Of a stretch of DNA of 31,540 nucleotides, positions 24,136-31,540 are shown piece after piece; position 1 is the first letter of the stretch; every line of letters begins with the position of its first letter. The position numbers and the translations under genes are program-made. The notes beneath the pieces were generated by a model. The model was not told where the DNA came from and did not search any database. It saw only the letters and a list, made by a program, of their open reading frames with translations. This DNA is from Microcoleaceae cyanobacterium (GTDB taxonomy: Bacteria; Cyanobacteriota; Cyanobacteriia; Cyanobacteriales; Microcoleaceae). Location of the stretch: NCBI GenBank assembly GCA_051652765.1, contig JBOFUV010000045.1:1-31540 (forward strand). Direction: 5' to 3'.

Positions 24136-25818
24136 ATGACTGTTTTAATCCGGCCTCTCCCGCTCAATGTTGTCCATTTGATTGCTGCCAGTGAAGTCAT
24201 TGACTCGTTGGCGGCTGTGGTTCGGGAATTGGTTGAGAATAGCCTGGATGCAGGGGCAACTCGAATGACCGTGTCCCTTTGGCCAGAACAGTGGCGAGTT
24301 CAAGTCACAGATAATGGCATCGGCATCAATTTAACCAACTTGAAACAGGCAGCAACTGCTCACAGCACCAGTAAAATCAGTACCTTGGCAGACCTAAACC
24401 AGGTGAGAAGTCTGGGGTTTCGGGGGGAAGCGCTTCATAGTTTAGCACAGCTCGCCAACCTAGAGATTGCCAGTCGATGTGCCGAAGCATCAGGATGGCG
24501 CATCAGTTATGATTCTCAGGGCAAACCAATCAAAACAGAGGCAGTCGCGATCGCCCCTGGAACGATTATCACAGTTTCTAATCTGTTTACCCATTGGCCC
24601 GCCCGCCGTCAAGCCCTGCCGTCTCCCGCCCAACAATTGCGAGGTGTGCAGCTTTTGATCCAGTCCATCGCCCTGTGCCATCCCCACGTCACTTGGCAAA
24701 TTTTCCAAGGTGCTATTCCCTGGTTGCAGATTAATCCAGGGGAAAATGCTCAGTTTATTTTGCCCCAACTCCTACGAAGTATTCGGCTGAGCGATTTGCA
24801 GTATCTGAGGTCAAAGCTGAAAGCCCAAGGGTCAACCCAGCAAAATCAGAGTCTAGACATGACTGGAGCCATTGAACTGGTGCTGGGACTACCCGATCGG
24901 TGTCATCGTCGCCGACCGGATTGGGTAAAAGTGGCGGTAAATGGCCGCATGGTGCGATTACCCGAAATCGAACAAACCGTCCTCAGTGCCCTCAGTCGAA
25001 CCTGCCCCCGCGATCGCTATCCAGTCTGCTTTGTGCATCTGCAAGTTCCGGCTGAACAGGTCGATTGGAATCGTCATCCCGCCAAGGAAGAGATTTATCT
25101 GCACAATTTACCCGATTGGCAAAATCAAGTCCACCAAGGGATTGACCAGGCTCTGCGGTTAAATGCGGCAGAACTTTTGGTTCCCCTCCATCGCGCTGAA
25201 ACCTTGTTAAAAGTTTCAGAAAATGCCGGTACTTATCAGGCGGCTGCTGCTCACCCAAAGCGAGAGGAATGGGGGCTTTTGGAGTTGAAGGCGATCGCCC
25301 AAGTCCACAACACCTACATTGTGGCAGAGCATCCCAACGGTCTTTGGCTCGTGGAGCAACACATTGCCCATGAACGAGTCCTGTTCGAGCAGATTTGTGA
25401 TGCTTGGCAACTCGTGCCCTTGGAACCGCCAATTGTCTTGCAACAGCTTACAGAATCTCAGTTAGAGCAACTCCAGCGGTTGAACTTAGAGGTTGATCCC
25501 TTCGGTGAAAACCTCTGGGCCGTTCGGAATGCCCCGGCACTCTTGGCTCAACGTTCAGACTGTGCAGAGGCCCTAACCGAACTCAGTTTGAGCGGTGACT
25601 TGCCCGCCGCTCAAGCCGCAACGGCCTGTCGCAGTGCGATTCGCAATGGCACACCCTTGAGTCTGTCAGAAATGCAGACCTTGCTCGATCAATGGGTCAG
25701 AACCCCTAATCCCCGCACCTGTCCCCACGGTCGCCCGATCTATCTGCGGTTGGATGAATCCTCTCTCGCCCGCTTCTTCCGTCGTCATTGGGTGATTGGC
25801 AAAAGTCATGGTATTTGA
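24136..25818 (+). CDS. mutL: DNA mismatch repair endonuclease MutL
   Basis: ELVENSLDAGA, DNG.G, TSKI and LGFRGEALHS; C-terminal EQHIAHERVLFE, ACR and CPHGRP endonuclease motifs. Confidence 0.96.
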   Translation: MTVLIRPLPLNVVHLIAASEVIDSLAAVVRELVENSLDAGATRMTVSLWPEQWRVQVTDNGIGINLTNLKQAATAHSTSKISTLADLNQVRSLGFRGEALHSLAQLANLEIASRCAEASGWRISYDSQGKPIKTEAVAIAPGTIITVSNLFTHWPARRQALPSPAQQLRGVQLLIQSIALCHPHVTWQIFQGAIPWLQINPGENAQFILPQLLRSIRLSDLQYLRSKLKAQGSTQQNQSLDMTGAIELVLGLPDRCHRRRPDWVKVAVNGRMVRLPEIEQTVLSALSRTCPRDRYPVCFVHLQVPAEQVDWNRHPAKEEIYLHNLPDWQNQVHQGIDQALRLNAAELLVPLHRAETLLKVSENAGTYQAAAAHPKREEWGLLELKAIAQVHNTYIVAEHPNGLWLVEQHIAHERVLFEQICDAWQLVPLEPPIVLQQLTESQLEQLQRLNLEVDPFGENLWAVRNAPALLAQRSDCAEALTELSLSGDLPAAQAATACRSAIRNGTPLSLSEMQTLLDQWVRTPNPRTCPHGRPIYLRLDESSLARFFRRHWVIGKSHGI

Positions 25819-26104
25819 ATTTGTTCTCCTGGATTATGGGCCTTTATAGAACCCATTTGGTATCTATCTAACCCGTAGCAAGTCTTTTGAGCATCAACCG
25901 GACAAAGCAAAGATTAACCTTATCATTTCTGACGGTTGGGTTTACAGATGAAACAGTGGTTGATGGAGTTGGAGATGACATCTTTATTAACCTGGGTTGC
26001 TTAACTCAGGAGCAGTATCTCGGCCTGATTTTTTAGCTGGTGCACCTAGGCGATCGCTGAATTAAACCCCGGAAAAGTAGCCGTTCAAGGTTGGGCAAAA
26101 TGCG

Positions 26105-26460
26105 AATGCGGGTTTGGTATGAGATCAATGCGGGTTTGGTGTGAGATCAAGGCGGGTTTAGTAAAAGATCAACGCTGGTTTGGTGTGAGATCAATGCAGG
26201 TGCGAAGCACGATCAACTTAATCTTAGTTTGAGATCAACTTGATCTGAGTGTGAGATCAATCCAGGTACGAAGCACGATCAACTTGATCTGAGTGTGAGA
26301 TCAACGGGCAAGTGCTCTGCGATCAACTTGATCTGGGTGTGAGATCAACGGGCAAGTGCTCTGCGATCAACTTGATCTGGGTGTGAGATCAACGGGCAAG
26401 TACTCTGTGATCAAGTTGATCTTAGTGTGAGATCAATGGGGGTTCGATGAACGATCAATC
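26105..26460. repeat. 22-bp-period array: invariant GATCAA plus variable 16-nt inserts (16 hexamers)
   Basis: GATCAA begins at 26123, 26145, 26167 and so on to 26453, always exactly 22 bp apart. Confidence 0.97.
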
Positions 26461-26503
26461 TGAACTTAAGTGTAACCCACCACGGATTTATTCAATCATC
26501 AAG

Positions 26504-26587
26504 CTAGAAATAATCTCTTCCATCATAGTGCTTGAGCCGAATCACATCACGTACCTGATCCAGTAGCTTTTTGAGACGTTGTTCCAT
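26504..26587 (-). pseudogene. intI: Truncated integron integrase (N-terminal 21 codons only)
   Basis: My translation is MEQRLKKLLDQVRDVIRLKHY-DGRDYF*. The first 21 aa match the integron-integrase N-terminal pattern (LLDQVR..IR.KHYS), and the remnant is divergent from the attI and cassette array as in canonical integrons. Confidence 0.85.
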
Positions 26588-26593
26588 TGCAGG

Positions 26594-26698
26594 ATAGACA
26601 GAAAGTTTCAGTCTAAAATCTTCACAATTCGATGCTAAGCCGAAAAAACCTGGATAACCTGCATATACGGAAAGTTTCAATCTAATAACTCGTTAGAC
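26594..26698 (+). other. attI-like integron attachment site
   Basis: L box ATCTAAT (26680-86), 5-bp spacer AACTC and R box GTTAGAC (26692-98), the same 7-5-7 geometry as attI1. Upstream direct repeat GAAAGTTTCA(G/A)TCTAA at 26601 and 26670. Confidence 0.75.
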
Positions 26699-26929
26699 CG
26701 CAGCTTTGAAACGTATTACATCATAACGAGGAAAATCCTATGCCTGATATCGTAGTACTCAGCGGGGTAATGACGAGTTCAGATTGCTCCTTGTGAATTG
26801 GGATAGACATTGATTTAGCTCAAGGCTATGTGGAGAAGGTAATCCCCAAACTAGGCTGGAGTAGATGCCCAAAATTAGCAGAGTTGTGTTTCTAAACCTA
26901 TCATCAGAACTAAATTTGAGAGGACATTC

Positions 26930-27487
26930 ATGCCAGAGAACTTAAAAATTGGGGCATTCGTCTTCGGGGCAATTCTTGTATTGATTGCTCTACTTGGAGG
27001 TAACTTCAAGGTCTTTGGGGCTGAGGTGGCGGCAACTATTTCTAATCGGTTCTTGCGTTTTGTGGCATTTGCATTAGGTGCAACCTTCTTGGTTGTAGCA
27101 ATGCACCCGCCTAATCTTGGAAACGGATCGGTTGCCCCCGATCCAACTTCTTCATCCCACCCACAATCAACAACTAGTTCACTTTCTCCACAGACTACAC
27201 AGTCAGTTCCCTCAACTGTTACGCCTTCTCCTGTACCAACAGAAAATAGTTCTTCCTGCACCCTAACAATCAGCAACACCTTAGTATCATTGATGAGTGA
27301 ACCCGAACGACTCAGCCGACAGATTGCTAAAGTAAGACCTGGTGAATATACTTCTTTGGATCATAAGATAACGAGTTTTCATGGTCTAAAAGAGGAAGGA
27401 TGGTTCCAAATCGAGGTAGAAGGTCGAAGGGGTTGGATAGCTGATGATACATGGACAATTGACAGGAAAAGTAGTTCATGCCCGTAA
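26930..27487 (+). CDS. Membrane-anchored protein: 2 TM helices, Ser/Thr/Pro linker, C-terminal SH3b-like domain
   Basis: RBS GAGG; GWFQIEVEGRRGWI is typical of bacterial SH3 domains; two Cys bracket the domain. Confidence 0.7.
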   Translation: MPENLKIGAFVFGAILVLIALLGGNFKVFGAEVAATISNRFLRFVAFALGATFLVVAMHPPNLGNGSVAPDPTSSSHPQSTTSSLSPQTTQSVPSTVTPSPVPTENSSSCTLTISNTLVSLMSEPERLSRQIAKVRPGEYTSLDHKITSFHGLKEEGWFQIEVEGRRGWIADDTWTIDRKSSSCP

Positions 27488-27510
27488 TGCATAATACAAG
27501 GAAATAGACT

Positions 27511-27831
27511 ATGGAGATCCTTCCCTTCATCATCATTGCTGTCGCTGGATTGCTGATTGTAGGAATCTTTGTTTCCTTAATCGCAACTTTCATACGCAAT
27601 GCTTCCTCACCTCGTCTTGCCAGAGAAGCCCGCGTTGTTGGCAAGCGTTTGGATGTCTCAGGTGGGAAAAATGGATCTTCCACCTATTACTACGCGACTT
27701 TTGAATTTCCTGATGGAAGCCGTGAAGAATTTGGTGTGGGTTCCAAAATTTATGGGATGTTGGCAGAAGGAGATTTGGGGACACTGCATTCTCAAGGAAC
27801 GTATGTGTGGGAATTTAATCGGCGAACTTGA
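27511..27831 (+). CDS. DUF2500-like membrane-anchored protein
   Basis: N-terminal TM helix, A.VVGKR..VS, TYYYATFEF..G.R.EF.V and YGMLAEGD.GTL..QGT. Confidence 0.75.
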   Translation: MEILPFIIIAVAGLLIVGIFVSLIATFIRNASSPRLAREARVVGKRLDVSGGKNGSSTYYYATFEFPDGSREEFGVGSKIYGMLAEGDLGTLHSQGTYVWEFNRRT

Positions 27832-27924
27832 AAAGCTCTCAGCACAAGTGGCTTGGCCAATTACGCATAATCCTTGAGTCCAAAGTACAATGAATGCAGT
27901 TCGTTATCAAATCCCTAAATAGCC

Positions 27925-28155
27925 ATGACACTTGAAAATCTTGAGGCTGAAGTCCTTTCACTTCCGAGAGACTCTCAAGCAACATTATTAGCTCGGCTCT
28001 TGGAGCATTTGGGTCAAAGCAATGAAATTGATCAAGAAGTGGCATCTGTCTGGGCTGAGGAAGCTGAACTACGCGATCAGGCAATGGATGACGGGCAAAC
28101 TGCTGGAGTTCCTGCTCAACAAGTGTTTCAGCGAATTCGTGCGTCTTGGCAATGA
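27925..28155 (+). CDS. Addiction-module antitoxin (Unstab_antitox/TIGR02574-like)
   Basis: 76 aa, acidic; L.LP...A.L...LL..L and W.EEAE.R; stop overlaps the toxin start (ATGA). Confidence 0.85.
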   Translation: MTLENLEAEVLSLPRDSQATLLARLLEHLGQSNEIDQEVASVWAEEAELRDQAMDDGQTAGVPAQQVFQRIRASWQ

Positions 28156-28448
28156 AAAACGTTGTATTTCATCCACTAGCGGAACAAGAGTTACTTGATG
28201 CCGCGACCTATTACGAGGAGCAAAGAGTTGGGCTTGGGCTAGAGTACCTAGAAGAAGTAGAACACGCAGTCAACTTCCTCACACGGTATCCTGAAGCTGG
28301 TTCCAAAGTTCGAGGCTTTGTGCGTCGTCTAACTTTACCCAAGTTCCCCTACTCCCTCTTGTATCGCTTGTTAGAAAATGACCAGATTCGTATTTTGGCA
28401 GTGGCGCACCACAAGCGTAGACCACAATATTGGCTTGATCGAGAGTAG
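28152..28448 (+). CDS. Type II toxin, RelE/ParE family
   Basis: FHPLAEQEL.DA..YYE, P.AG, RR..L.KFPYSLLY and ILAVAH.KRRP.YW; ATG at 28152. Confidence 0.9.
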   Translation: MKNVVFHPLAEQELLDAATYYEEQRVGLGLEYLEEVEHAVNFLTRYPEAGSKVRGFVRRLTLPKFPYSLLYRLLENDQIRILAVAHHKRRPQYWLDRE

Positions 28449-28457
28449 TTGGCGGCG

Positions 28458-28543
28458 GTCTAACAATGCGTTGGTGCGGACGGGCGAGAGATCTTGGTGC
28501 TGAGTTCGAGATTATCTGCCGCCGCTTATCTCAGTCGTTATAC
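28458..28543 (+). other. attC site 1 (86 bp; L boxes degenerate)
   Basis: R'' GTCTAAC lies 9 bp after the toxin stop and R' is GTTATAC. Internal imperfect inverted repeat; central region similar to attC 2. Confidence 0.8.
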
Positions 28544-28572
28544 GGCAAGCATCCACTTCGGAATCCCGGCCA

Positions 28573-29451
28573 TCAAATTTGTAGCCACGTTAGATCTTTC
28601 CCAATTATTAATTCTGTCTTCTTCGCATGATGAGTGTTCTTCATTGCAATTAATTTCGTCTCAAACTTACAGCGACTTGCCAATGCCTGCACTTCACTGT
28701 CATTGTCATAAGTCATCAGAAAATTGCCTTGTAGTCTATACGCTAAATCAAATAAGGCTTCATGATTAATATCTGAGTAACGATAGAGTCGTTGCCCAGC
28801 CTTTATATAAGGTGGGTCAATGAAGAAGATAACACTATCTCTGCTTGCATTCTTCTCACAAACCTCGAATGCATCACCTTCGATAAAGTTAATCTTGTGC
28901 TTGATTTGATCTATTGCAAGAATTCGCTTTTTAAGGGTTTCAGGATACCAGCGAGAGGTTATTCCTTTGCCATTTTCCCCATTCTTGATAAAACTAGCTC
29001 CGTCTGCAAGGATACCGCCTCGATTCACACGGTTCTTGATGATCGTCGCGAAAGCACGAGACTCCAAAGATTCACTAGCCTGATCTATTACTCTTCTTGC
29101 GCTCTCTGGAGTCAGTTGAAAATTCATAATGGCATCACCAAGCCACTCAGCTCCACCATTCAAAATGATTTTCCAAACAGCAGCGACACCCTCATCTTTT
29201 TCAACCATCGTTACCCGATCAACAAGATTTTCACAAACAGCCGTTAAACTCACAATGCCACCACCTGCGAAGGGTTCGATCAGTTCTTTGCCAGAACCAC
29301 CCTGATAATGCAACCATTGCCGGATCTTTGGAATGAGCCAAGTTTTCCCACCAGCATATCGGAAAGGACTGCGCTGTGGGACGCTGGAAACATTCACCAC
29401 ATTCTGATGACTAGTTATGGTTTTGGGGTCGAATAGCTCAATTTGAAGCAT
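28573..29451 (-). CDS. DNA amino-methyltransferase, alpha class (Dam/D12-like)
   Basis: SPFRYAGGKTW, motif I EPFAGGG, and motif IV FFIDPPY. Confidence 0.92.
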   Translation of the reverse strand: MLQIELFDPKTITSHQNVVNVSSVPQRSPFRYAGGKTWLIPKIRQWLHYQGGSGKELIEPFAGGGIVSLTAVCENLVDRVTMVEKDEGVAAVWKIILNGGAEWLGDAIMNFQLTPESARRVIDQASESLESRAFATIIKNRVNRGGILADGASFIKNGENGKGITSRWYPETLKKRILAIDQIKHKINFIEGDAFEVCEKNASRDSVIFFIDPPYIKAGQRLYRYSDINHEALFDLAYRLQGNFLMTYDNDSEVQALASRCKFETKLIAMKNTHHAKKTELIIGKDLTWLQI

Positions 29452-29462
29452 CAGCTTGTTTC

Positions 29463-30335
29463 CTACTGCAATGGAATATCGATGATAGTTTGTGTGTCTG
29501 GTGGATTGTCTAACTTGTTATCAAGCTTTTGTTGTAGTATCTCAATAAAATCTTCTAGTTTGCCAGCTTCCGGCGTAGAAATTCGGTTAATGGCTGCCCA
29601 GTATTCTGTATAGATAACATCACTTAAAACTAAGTTAAAGTGCTCATCCTGGCGTTCCAGATCGTAAAGATTCCAGGCAATTTCAGCTTGACTCTGTCCG
29701 ACCTGTGGCAGCTCTGGTAGTGTTTCAAAAAAGCTCTTTTGTACAACGATCACCTGCTTCTTGCCCCACTCACGCAAAATCTTCCCTTTGTAGAGTAATT
29801 GCGGAACCAAACGCTTACGGGAAGATGAAAGGTAGTCTGGAGTTGGATAATAATCTGCGAGTTGTGACCAGTTAACAGATTCCCAACCTTGAGGGTCATT
29901 CATGTAAGTTTCAAAAGGCTTACGCACATTGCCAGAGATGTACACTGCTTGCACTTCAACCGCCCCAAAATCTAAAACCTTCCCTCGATCATCATAGGAA
30001 ACCAGCACCACATCAATATTTCCAGCGGATTGACCGTTGGCATCTTTCAAACGAACTTCCGTGAGGGAAGTCCAGCTAGTATTTTCTCCAAAAAAGAAAG
30101 TGGCAGCATTTTCAGCAATTAGCCAATCTTGCCGAAAACGAACTGGGCAGGTAATGACCGGGGACTGTTTGTGGTAAATACTGCATACTCCGAGTGGATC
30201 GTTTGCCTTATCCTTCGTACAGTTAGGTACCTTGTTGTTGTACGGGCACAGCTTATTACGCCGATATCGCGTTGCTTGTTCCGAGAAACTGTTACTCGGA
30301 AAGCCAAAGACCTCTGCAAGCGGATTATTAGACAT
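29463..30335 (-). CDS. NotI-family type II restriction endonuclease
   Basis: AEVFGF, a Cys4 metal site (CPY...CTK...GVCS...CP.RF), the catalytic ID...AVEVQ, and PDYLSS.RKRL.PQL..KG; 11 bp upstream of the MTase. Confidence 0.82.
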   Translation of the reverse strand: MSNNPLAEVFGFPSNSFSEQATRYRRNKLCPYNNKVPNCTKDKANDPLGVCSIYHKQSPVITCPVRFRQDWLIAENAATFFFGENTSWTSLTEVRLKDANGQSAGNIDVVLVSYDDRGKVLDFGAVEVQAVYISGNVRKPFETYMNDPQGWESVNWSQLADYYPTPDYLSSSRKRLVPQLLYKGKILREWGKKQVIVVQKSFFETLPELPQVGQSQAEIAWNLYDLERQDEHFNLVLSDVIYTEYWAAINRISTPEAGKLEDFIEILQQKLDNKLDNPPDTQTIIDIPLQ

Positions 30336-30431
30336 AGGGGCTGGGCTGAACTAAGACTATGACAAGTTCTAAGGGTACCGTGCAGACTCTGAAAAAGCCA
30401 GCCATAATTGAAGTTATTGGCGTAGGTTGCC

Positions 30432-30517
30432 GTATAACACTGCGCTGCAACGGACGGACGGAAGATCTTGGTGATGTGCCAAAGGGTGCCTACCGCCGTT
30501 GAGCTTCACCGTTAGCC
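30432..30517 (+). other. attC site 2 (86 bp, canonical)
   Basis: R'' GTATAAC, 5 bp, L'' GCT[G]CAAC ... L' GTTGAGC, 6 bp, R' GTTAGCC. The L boxes pair perfectly apart from one extrahelical base. Confidence 0.93.
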
Positions 30518-31403
30518 TGCTTCGTTTGGTTGGTTAGGAGTTTTTGATTAAGGCGTAGTTGAAAAATCAGAGATAGGGTTAAGAGAGTTAAGTGATGTTT
30601 TATGAACTTGAGACAATAAGAGAATTTTGCAATTGTGGCAATTTAATGAAGTACGAAACTAATTTTCGGCATAAAGGTGGAAGTGATAGTAATGAATACT
30701 ACACCATTGAAATTTTTGAAATATATACGTGCCCAGCTTGTGAGAATGCAACTCTCCTATGCTACTCCACAGTGGGGAATGACCTAGAAGACGAGGCGAA
30801 TGGATATGATGAAGAAAAGGAACTTTATCGAGAGTATGCTCGAACAGTTTTATATGCTCCGAACAAGTTGCTTCATCATGCAATTCCCCGATCTATTGCC
30901 GAAGTCACTTATCAAGCACAATCAGTTTTGTCTAATTCTCCACGTGCAAGCTTTATTTTATGTAGAGCAGTATTAGAAGAAATTTGTAACAATTTTAATA
31001 TTCCTACTGAGAACTTGAACAACAAAGGCAAGAGTCACTTTGTGAATCTTAAGGAAAGGCTTACTCAGTTATTTGAACAAGAAAAGATGGCAGAAGATTT
31101 AATAGCTATCATTCAAGGGATTAGAGAGCTTGGTAATGAGGGAACTCATTCAGATCACCTAACGTTTGCCAAACAGGTAGGGGTTAAAGATGCAAAGAGT
31201 TTGTTGATGCTTGTGAATTATGTTACTGAGCGTCTATATGTTGATAAATACCGACAACAGGAGGCAGAAGAAGTGTTGAGCAAACTGAAAGGAAAAATAT
31301 TGACATCAGAGTAATAAACAACAGGCTAACAATTCTGGTGCAGCGGATTGGCCGAAGCCGCTTGTGGTGTTGCAAAGGTATCGGCAACCGCTGACCAGAA
31401 ACG
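30512..31403 (+). mobile_element. Gene cassette 3 (892 bp, single ORF)
   Basis: GTTAGCCTG (30511-19) is the reverse complement of CAGGCTAAC (31322-30). Confidence 0.9.
30592..31314 (+). CDS. DUF4145 (HEPN-like) domain protein with N-terminal Zn-ribbon
   Basis: CNC...CPAC, then ASFILCRAVLEEIC, L.ERL..L and IRELGNEGTH (RxxGNxxxH). AT-rich; start is GTG 30592 or ATG 30595. Confidence 0.8.
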   Translation: MMFYELETIREFCNCGNLMKYETNFRHKGGSDSNEYYTIEIFEIYTCPACENATLLCYSTVGNDLEDEANGYDEEKELYREYARTVLYAPNKLLHHAIPRSIAEVTYQAQSVLSNSPRASFILCRAVLEEICNNFNIPTENLNNKGKSHFVNLKERLTQLFEQEKMAEDLIAIIQGIRELGNEGTHSDHLTFAKQVGVKDAKSLLMLVNYVTERLYVDKYRQQEAEEVLSKLKGKILTSE

Positions 31404-31409
31404 TTCGAC
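31324..31409 (+). other. attC site 3 (86 bp)
   Basis: R'' GGCTAAC lies 9 bp after the stop; TTCTGGT[G]CAGCGG pairs with CCGCTGACCAGAA; R' is GTTCGAC (non-consensus C). Confidence 0.9.
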
Positions 31410-31540
31410 CGCTAGGTTATCCGTGGGGCGGCAGCATGAAATTTATCTGTTAGAGTTCAGCCTGAAGTTAACTTGAGGCTGTTGATAAGACAGTGTTTCG
31501 AGGTTACTGGCGGGGCGATCGCGCAGTTAAGCTGACTAAT

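Follow-up and report, generated by a model that had tools for sequence, protein, structure and literature searches.

The DNA behind mutL in a Microcoleaceae cyanobacterium raises two questions: how did an integron array without an intact integrase gene come to lie there, and how was it filled with cassettes? The array is on contig C45 (JBOFUV010000045.1) of the source assembly GCA_051652765.1, here called G000, a draft of 5.04 Mb in 158 contigs that is 99.97% complete with 0.18% contamination; the whole contig, 31,540 nucleotides, is referred to as the window. The window carries psaA and psaB, along with ndk and mutL, and the two psa genes identify it as cyanobacterial chromosome. In integrons, the integrase IntI joins the folded bottom strand of an attC site to attI at G|TT, and it can act on arrays that have no intI of their own. 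A preliminary description, made from the sequence alone, had proposed a once-active integron fixed downstream of mutL. A cyanobacterial chromosomal platform with cassettes bounded at G|TT is indeed present, but a single integron fixed at this place is not supported: there are 22 attI copies in the assembly, 12 platforms share the same intI truncation, and none lies behind mutL in either of the two congeners. We think it probable that a non-autonomous attI platform was multiplied in this genome and was then loaded with cassettes by IntI acting in trans, which would make it a multi-site integron.

Parts of the array behind mutL

The first three cassettes of the window each end in an 86-bp attC site (Table 1), with an RYYTAAC-type box at its start and a GTT box at its end; a sequence check bore out the positions and the TAAC and GTT boxes given in the preliminary description. 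A profile seeded from these three sites only gave 50 matches at E<0.01 in the assembly, three of them the sites themselves, and after three rounds of iteration 86 matches at E<1e-3 (93 at E<=1), as compared with one match (E=0.1) in the reversed genome used as control. In a structural alignment of 53 attC sites (the three window sites and 50 full-length ones from other loci) 91% of the cells pair, and two-sided changes occur at 11 of 16 pairs. Related sequences can beat structure shuffles without having any structure, but in slid controls pairing drops to 27–52%. The hairpin form expected of integron sites, R and L boxes and bulged bases included, is thus present, attC1 being degenerate. The full bottom-strand hairpin forms in attC2 (z −2.35) and attC3 (z −4.04) and not in attC1 (z −0.09), whose L boxes are unpaired, which fits the earlier remark that two of the three sites have the bulged base. 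The left half of attC1 is common to five other sites and its right L box to two others, so that it is apparently chimeric, made up of two attC types. Many attC sites of G000, including 28458-28543, likewise look chimeric, with a left arm of one type, a right arm of another and unpaired L boxes, which suggests homologous recombination between attC sites. An Rfam scan gave no family near the gathering score for the attC sites, and a hand-written structural scan, insensitive and noisy (30 matches, with one of the three window sites recovered), was replaced by the profiles. The window sites score 74–78 bits with the attC model R1, which was trained on G000 and includes them as training rows, so these scores are not independent. 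The longest attC chain inside one contig of G000 has five sites, and contig breaks may shorten arrays.

The left ends of cassettes 1, 2 and 3 match the start of their own attC over 10, 12 and 9 bases, as had been described, and an equally long match is found in only 1, 0 and 3, respectively, of the 73 other attC sites of the genome. Over 54 cassettes of the genome the mean end match is 6.5 bases, compared with 4.4 for shuffled pairings (the highest of 5000 shuffles being 5.1), and matches of at least 9 bases number 16 against 1.3 in the shuffled pairings.

The 7-5-7 attI site of the preliminary description was also confirmed. Its core sits between the intI start and the first cassette, as in integrons, and the same core is found beside the near-full intI of G002 (G001 and G002 are two other genomes of the genus) and beside the intact intI of genome G278. 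Identity among platform copies stops at the G|TT of attI. The palindrome upstream of the core consists of a GTTRRRY-like box and an inverted box around GAAARTTTC; such units, up to five in a row, number 78 in 21 of the 22 attI regions of the assembly, and 39 of 57 spacings between them are 41 bp. By analogy with DR1 and DR2 of attI1, they may be read as putative extra IntI-binding sites. A promoter scan of the window platform gave two promoter-like sites against 2.5 expected, none of them at attI. A near-perfect promoter (−35, 16 bp, −10) overlaps the attI left box upstream of intI in G017 (L071) and G028 (L067); a cyanobacterial cassette promoter Pc may therefore lie inside attI.

The divergent N-terminal stub of IntI is present, its homology covering 21 codons and not the 58-residue open reading frame (ORF) proposed earlier; 16 of 22 residues are identical to one intact cyanobacterial IntI, and the stub neither matches Pfam nor is listed by a TIGR02249 search. 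A functional peptide was considered and rejected, since three of the 12 identically truncated copies have a stop or have lost the start, and non-synonymous changes (12) are set against nine synonymous ones.

Three parts of the platform had been missed in the preliminary description, namely the repeated attI units, a 22-bp tandem array and the end of a MITE (miniature inverted-repeat transposable element). The array is joined to the stub by a conserved tail, which was found in all 12 identically truncated copies as well as at C50 and C74 (C-numbers are contigs); it is not the 3′ end of a gene, there being no such ORF at stand-alone arrays. Of 24 distinct arrays in the assembly (at least three units in phase), 16 adjoin a platform remnant and eight do not; the array is therefore a dispersed repeat that became attached to the platform. 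It was matched in one of 40 relatives. The 22-bp repeat is restricted to the genus and has GATC every 22 or 11 bases, with uniform units on the left and mixed units on the right. It is not a CRISPR (no spacers), not a coding repeat (its period is not a multiple of three) and not a widespread element (the exact 28-nt pattern matched one stretch in a collection of 185,579 species).

Platform copies in the assembly

In total, 86 attC sites, 22 attI sites and 18 intI 5′ remnants are present in the assembly. The attI profile, built from the last 43 bases of 17 attI sites, found 22 sites at E<1e-3, 17 of them in its training set, and none in the reversed genome. A same-strand attC follows within 7 kb at 17 of the 22 sites, and three of the other five lie within 2.1 kb of a contig end. 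The intI remnants, searched with the near-full intI of G002 as query, all include the start codon; nothing beyond codon 117 was found in the assembly, nor any TIGR02249 match over the cut-off. Twelve of the 18 share one break point, 63 nt from the start, beyond which the same tail and 22-bp array follow. These 12 copies sit mid-contig, and their left flanks have no pairwise blastn match, that is, they lie in 12 unrelated neighbourhoods. Their first cassettes differ, the closest pair being an ORF-less cassette at C50 and C67. Ten further attI sites have other remnants or none. The parts, their copy numbers, the common junction, the unrelated flanks, the differing first cassettes and the G|TT boundaries are direct observations.

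According to the explanation that we favour, the platform (the 22-bp array, the intI remnant ending at codon 21, the attI region with its repeats, and attI) would have spread to at least 12 sites after the truncation. The window copy may have reached mutL as the passenger of an IS5-family MITE end, with the transposase supplied in trans, and copies without such an insertion sequence (IS) end probably spread by recombination through repeats. Cassettes would then have been added at each attI by IntI in trans, its gene since lost, unassembled or only passing through. The platform copies would exchange sequence by ectopic recombination, and the arrays may persist because many cassettes are toxin–antitoxin or restriction systems.

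The left boundary of the window platform bears on the first of these steps. The right end of the MITE, preceded by TA, starts 27 bases behind the mutL stop, and this boundary is common to the base at C45, C67 and C101, where the flanks are unrelated; such exactness at three loci is a signature of transposition. Complete MITEs of ~285 bp with both inverted repeats are found at C134, C68 and C35, and the transposase N-terminus gave a weak match to DUF4096 (IS4/5 transposase; E 0.0016, below the cut-off). At C35 and C50, the candidate continuations of the window (the join being presumed), a MITE of the same family lies within 300 bases of the next attC.

The same boundary bears on a single ancestral sedentary integron at mutL, decayed in place. 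All platform parts are there in the right order beside a core gene, as this would predict, but the IS end lies 27 bases behind mutL, the junction is common to 11 other loci, 21 further attI sites exist in the assembly and no integron is found at mutL in either congener, making decay in place very improbable. The comparison of the mutL-downstream locus that the preliminary description had proposed showed no attC, stub or array there in G001 and G002, which are 71–76% identical to G000 in this region with shuffled gene order; because the gene order differs, the locus is not a clean empty site.

Several results weigh against multiplication of a truncated platform. No intact intI that could supply the trans-acting enzyme was found in the assembly, and no full-length transposase of the MITE family was found there either. 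The IS end accounts for only 3–4 of the 22 platforms, and the right end of the window copy falls in the contig break. No empty site was seen at the five other platform loci compared, where the flanks map to different contigs in G001 and G002 and gene order is shuffled in both. Furthermore, the 12 copies are 81–95% identical, which is no young clonal burst; they differ by 10.9% mutually, by 10.8% from other remnants and by 11.7% from G002. The stubs are mosaic: among 406 informative site pairs 214 are incompatible, a number to which recurrent transitions may contribute, and tail and stub show no clear correlation (Mantel r 0.19, p 0.08). This divergence and mosaicism would fit gene conversion among pre-existing platforms just as well.

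Such conversion is central to the most serious alternative, in which complete integrons spread first and were loaded in cis, and an allele with the array and the codon-21 deletion later replaced intI at 12 sites, with the array and the intI start as the two regions of exchange. The mosaic stubs do share variants with longer remnants and with G002, the array adjoins longer intI remnants with other junctions at C88 and C71, and intI remnants of many lengths occur in G002, G028, G035 and G123. However, it needs the array beside each earlier intI, and the array is absent beside the near-full intI of G002 and beside the remnants at C74, C138, C51 and C34:108598. Two platforms 7% apart that carry a near-identical cassette 4, and the G278 stub, a bare duplicate with new cassettes, also speak against it. 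We regard this sequence of events as unlikely, while giving it real weight.

Table 1. Features of the mutL locus and related repeats (positions in the window unless a contig is named)
Feature	Position	Strand	Description
mutL	24136-25818	+	Flanking host gene, outside the element; Pfam DNA_mis_repair, MutL_C
TA target and 3′ (right) end of IS5-family MITE	25845-25921	-	Last 17 transposase codons; left boundary of the platform copy
Spacer	25922-26104		Common to five other platform copies (C101, C67, C50, C97, C22), blastn 89–95% identity
22-bp tandem array	26105-26458	+	16 GATCAA in phase; dispersed repeat family of the genus
Conserved tail of array element	26459-26524	+	Fused to intI remnant; ~70 bp in copies
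intI remnant, codons 1-21	26525-26587	-	Divergent from attI
attI upstream region	26588-26686	+	Imperfect palindrome of ~25 bp with GAAARTTTC at its centre, present twice at a distance of 69 bp
attI core	26680-26698	+	7-5-7: L box, 5-bp spacer, R box; crossover after G26692
Cassette 1	26693-28537	+	185-aa membrane protein, DUF2500, antitoxin, ParE toxin; ends in attC1
attC1	28458-28543	+	86 bp, ends cassette 1
Cassette 2	28538-30511	+	NotI-family endonuclease and D12-class methyltransferase on opposite strand; ends in attC2
attC2	30432-30517	+	86 bp, ends cassette 2
Cassette 3	30512-31403	+	DUF4145 protein; ends in attC3; weak PADLOC PD-T7-4 match, E 6e-8
attC3	31324-31409	+	86 bp, ends cassette 3
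Cassette 4 start	31404-31540	+	Cut by contig end; identical to end of contig C67
ORF-less cassette, example	L084:5957-6174		G000 C22:52456-52673
Stand-alone 22-bp arrays	C31, C49, C63, C109, C116, C134, C144, C145

Cassette traffic and other cyanobacterial genomes

Of the three cassettes in the preliminary description, cassette 1 is a composite, and beyond cassette 3 begins a fourth one, likewise found in C67. Composite cassette 1 has four genes, the first of which is a stand-alone cassette in G636, and its toxin–antitoxin pair has an attC of its own in G623 and G425. Parts of it were matched in six of 300 genomes and the whole in none, while all four genes lie in order on one metagenome contig (run X5). 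Among the sequencing runs listed, none of which is RNA, the best share was 0.09. Contigs of the four runs examined contain pieces of cassettes 1 and 2 and not the platform, nor did they reveal a circle junction, for which contigs are unsuited.

When 400 other genomes of the class were compared, 17 gave a match to cassette 2, and ten of these loci were examined. In G605, of another family, it lies directly behind attI with 89.5% identity over 1989 bases, and the homology starts at window position 28537 and stops just past the G|TT of attC2, with different neighbours. Gene gain or loss at G|TT in relatives had been set beforehand as a test, and this locus passes it. Cassette 2 lies behind a different attC in G581, and the copy in G501 has the same G|TT start but is preceded by non-att DNA; at the remaining seven loci the genes were matched, the ends not being shown. 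Movement of cassettes as units bounded at G|TT is thus seen with cassette 2 (G605 and G581), with cassette 4 and in the end matches.

Cassette 4 is identical at 138 of 138 bases between C45 and C67, counted from the G of G|TT. Its probable far end opens both C35 and C50, with two differences in 272 bases and a parting at G|TT; judged by a 9-base end match, these two contig starts are the probable continuation of cassette 4. The C45 and C67 platforms are 93% identical over tail and stub and differ in cassettes 1–3. Because near-identical cassette 4 copies occupy platforms only 93% identical, the cassette traffic is younger than the divergence of the truncated platforms, unless conversion brought in the truncation later.

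An ORF-less 213-bp cassette, possibly a promoter or RNA cassette, occurs in at least ten near-full copies across the arrays (88–99% identity), twice directly at attI, and at C50 and C68 an IS5-type MITE is inserted into it at the same TA. For the cargo of the G000 arrays, 109 ORFs were taken from rough array spans, some of which include non-cassette genes, and 104 were scanned with Pfam: 13 match restriction, methyltransferase or nuclease families, 23 match toxin–antitoxin-type families and 33 match nothing, with restriction, nuclease or toxin–antitoxin-type families together accounting for 36. Several DUFs counted here are presumably toxin–antitoxin systems. The first cassette of the C22 array has a DUF2281–PIN pair interrupting a type ISP restriction-modification gene (L084:1416-5191), and that of the C34 array (L086:5555-9070), with a Cap4-type nuclease gene, a small ORF and an AAA_23 ATPase gene, is a candidate three-gene anti-phage system. 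Two cassettes of the C17 array (L152:7862-9708) are 90–93% identical in G002, where core genes are 70–80% identical, which points to recent exchange between species. Uptake of cassettes via natural transformation has been described for Vibrio (PMC12614218).

When 400 other genomes of the phylum were searched with a profile of the IntI N-terminus, 78 had matches, 18 of them three to six (these are matches and not copy numbers); G000 itself has at least 15. With model R1, matches came from 112 of the 149 other genomes searched in the class (at least 29 matches in ten of them), which speaks against G000 being unique; among 40 relatives the next highest count is 22, compared with 82 in G000, on which the model was trained. 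Five complete or two-contig genomes, picked for several IntI N-terminal matches, were inspected for intI remnants. In G072 a single intact intI occurs together with four or more remnants that have attC sites of their own. In the single contig of G278, one intact intI is accompanied, 2.3 Mb away, by a 338-bp duplicate (97.6% identical) that comprises intI codons 1–23 through attI to G|TT, abuts an IS630-like element and heads four different attC. Complete cyanobacterial genomes thus show the same plan at a smaller scale. Remnants only are present in G028, G035 and G123. Within the genus, G002 has a near-full intI with a stop near its end and at least eight attI sites, and G001 has no attI sites.

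These genomes also bear on whether the many copies in G000 come from misassembly or a mixture of strains. The draft has 158 contigs and does break at repeated cassettes. Contamination is nevertheless 0.18%, the copies differ by 5–19% and sit mid-contig in unrelated flanks, and the same plan is seen in G072 and G278, each a single contig, so an artefact is scarcely credible.

Two further genomes contain unusual joins. On contig C63 of G002 (L063:2818-2902) intI is truncated by a G|TT join between an attC and an internal site of the gene. G016 carries four tandem units of gene end, intI, attI and cassette (L065:750-19200), with four different attC each joined to the same GTTAAAT segment. The repeated gene end is, as we take it from its translation, peptide-release-factor-like, and the arrangement suggests an IntI-made amplification of the platform with a host gene. 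In the same genome, an 80-bp tandem repeat of ~15 copies lies near an integron remnant (L066:5722-6921).

Such joins would be expected if IntI itself moved the platform, recombination of an attC with an upstream secondary G|TT site freeing a circle (intI piece, attI and cassettes) that reintegrates elsewhere. The C63 remnant begins exactly at its join, the G016 units repeat theirs four times, C50 shows a MITE left end with an attC fused into it at G|TT, and C97 and C103 start at or beside GTT. The codon-21 junction, however, is not G|TT, nor are most of the truncation points compared, and the left boundary in the window is an IS end; this route is improbable.

Returning to multiplication followed by loading in trans, we tentatively extend it beyond G000, with rather less confidence: cyanobacteria might commonly run a distributed integron, in which the attI platform is a short non-autonomous mobile element established at many loci, the cassettes form one pool for all of them and a single or transient integrase acts in trans. 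Against the generality of hidden platforms, many attC of G072, G028 and G035 lie far from any intI remnant, and G032 has 18 attC with no IntI N-terminal match. If the extension is true, many integrase-less arrays of cyanobacteria would conceal an attI and still be able to take up cassettes, and the attI units repeated at 41 bp, together with the 22-bp array, would serve IntI recruitment and platform spread. In any case, a cyanobacterial attI consensus and an attC model are gained, many restriction and toxin–antitoxin genes are marked as exchangeable cassettes, and the idea is testable across the phylum.

Relation to known integrons

The window array works like an integron and files as a CALIN (clustered attC sites that have no integron-integrase). 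It is no complete integron, since only 21 codons are left of intI. It shares its chromosomal location with sedentary chromosomal integrons and has neither their conserved locus nor their large array (more than 10 attC as defined in the relevant part of PMC9024848). A CALIN contains a minimum of two attC with no intI detected nearby, and here three attC accompany a stub unseen by Pfam and TIGR02249. The left boundary of an integron mobilization unit (IMU), a MITE end with target bases, is found at C45, C67 and C101.

As far as the CALIN passages of PMC4889954 go, the arrays of G000 share with CALINs the small size and an openness to integrase in trans, but they keep attI and a 5′ stub that is invisible to a C-terminal profile search. 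The survey described there, which used an IntI C-terminal profile, placed intI pseudogenes near only 15 of 279 CALINs, and the passage on CALIN origins names four, platform multiplication not being among them. The platforms have been overlooked because profile searches leave out the end of the gene to which the 21 remaining codons belong.

Sedentary chromosomal integrons, such as that of Xanthomonas at ilvD as outlined in 10.1101/2025.06.18.660453, are likewise chromosomal, with a species-type attC family and frequent intI inactivation, and share toxin–antitoxin and defence cassettes with the arrays seen here (10.1101/2024.07.02.601686, in its account of cassette content). The Xanthomonas account gives one conserved locus with separate CALINs elsewhere; in G000 there are 22 attI sites, their arrays are short and their loci are not conserved. 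MITE-flanked class 1 integrons and IMUs, in the descriptions given by PMC3184786 and PMC3575428, also consist of a defective integron between non-autonomous IS-type ends, with transposase in trans; those are single elements of Proteobacteria with two full MITEs, in contrast to an IS5-type end at 3–4 of 22 platforms here. Insertion at attG, as summarized in 10.1101/2022.09.11.507474, explains attC joined to non-att DNA, as at C50, at C63 of G002 and in G501, but yields arrays without attI, whereas the arrays here begin at a conserved attI.

The intI survey of Nemergut et al. 2008 (PMC2426708) counted near-full-length genes and reported about a third of them as pseudogenes, more than one intI in a fifth of lineages and some intragenomic duplicates; multiplied attI platforms, a shared truncation and tens of copies do not figure in its passages on these points. 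Cyanobacterial integrons and an attC model have already been published, as the corresponding parts of PMC8618304 and PMC8352920 indicate. The literature covered, mostly outside subscription papers, gave no account of tens of attI platforms with a shared truncation or of multi-site cyanobacterial platforms; the supplementary tables of PMC4889954 and PMC9024848 may list such loci.

Taken alone, the array in the window is an ordinary new member of its kind. For the origin of integrase-less arrays in general, the routes proposed so far are integrase loss, rearrangement and off-target insertion, and multiplication of the attI platform is a further route to which the copies in G000 point.

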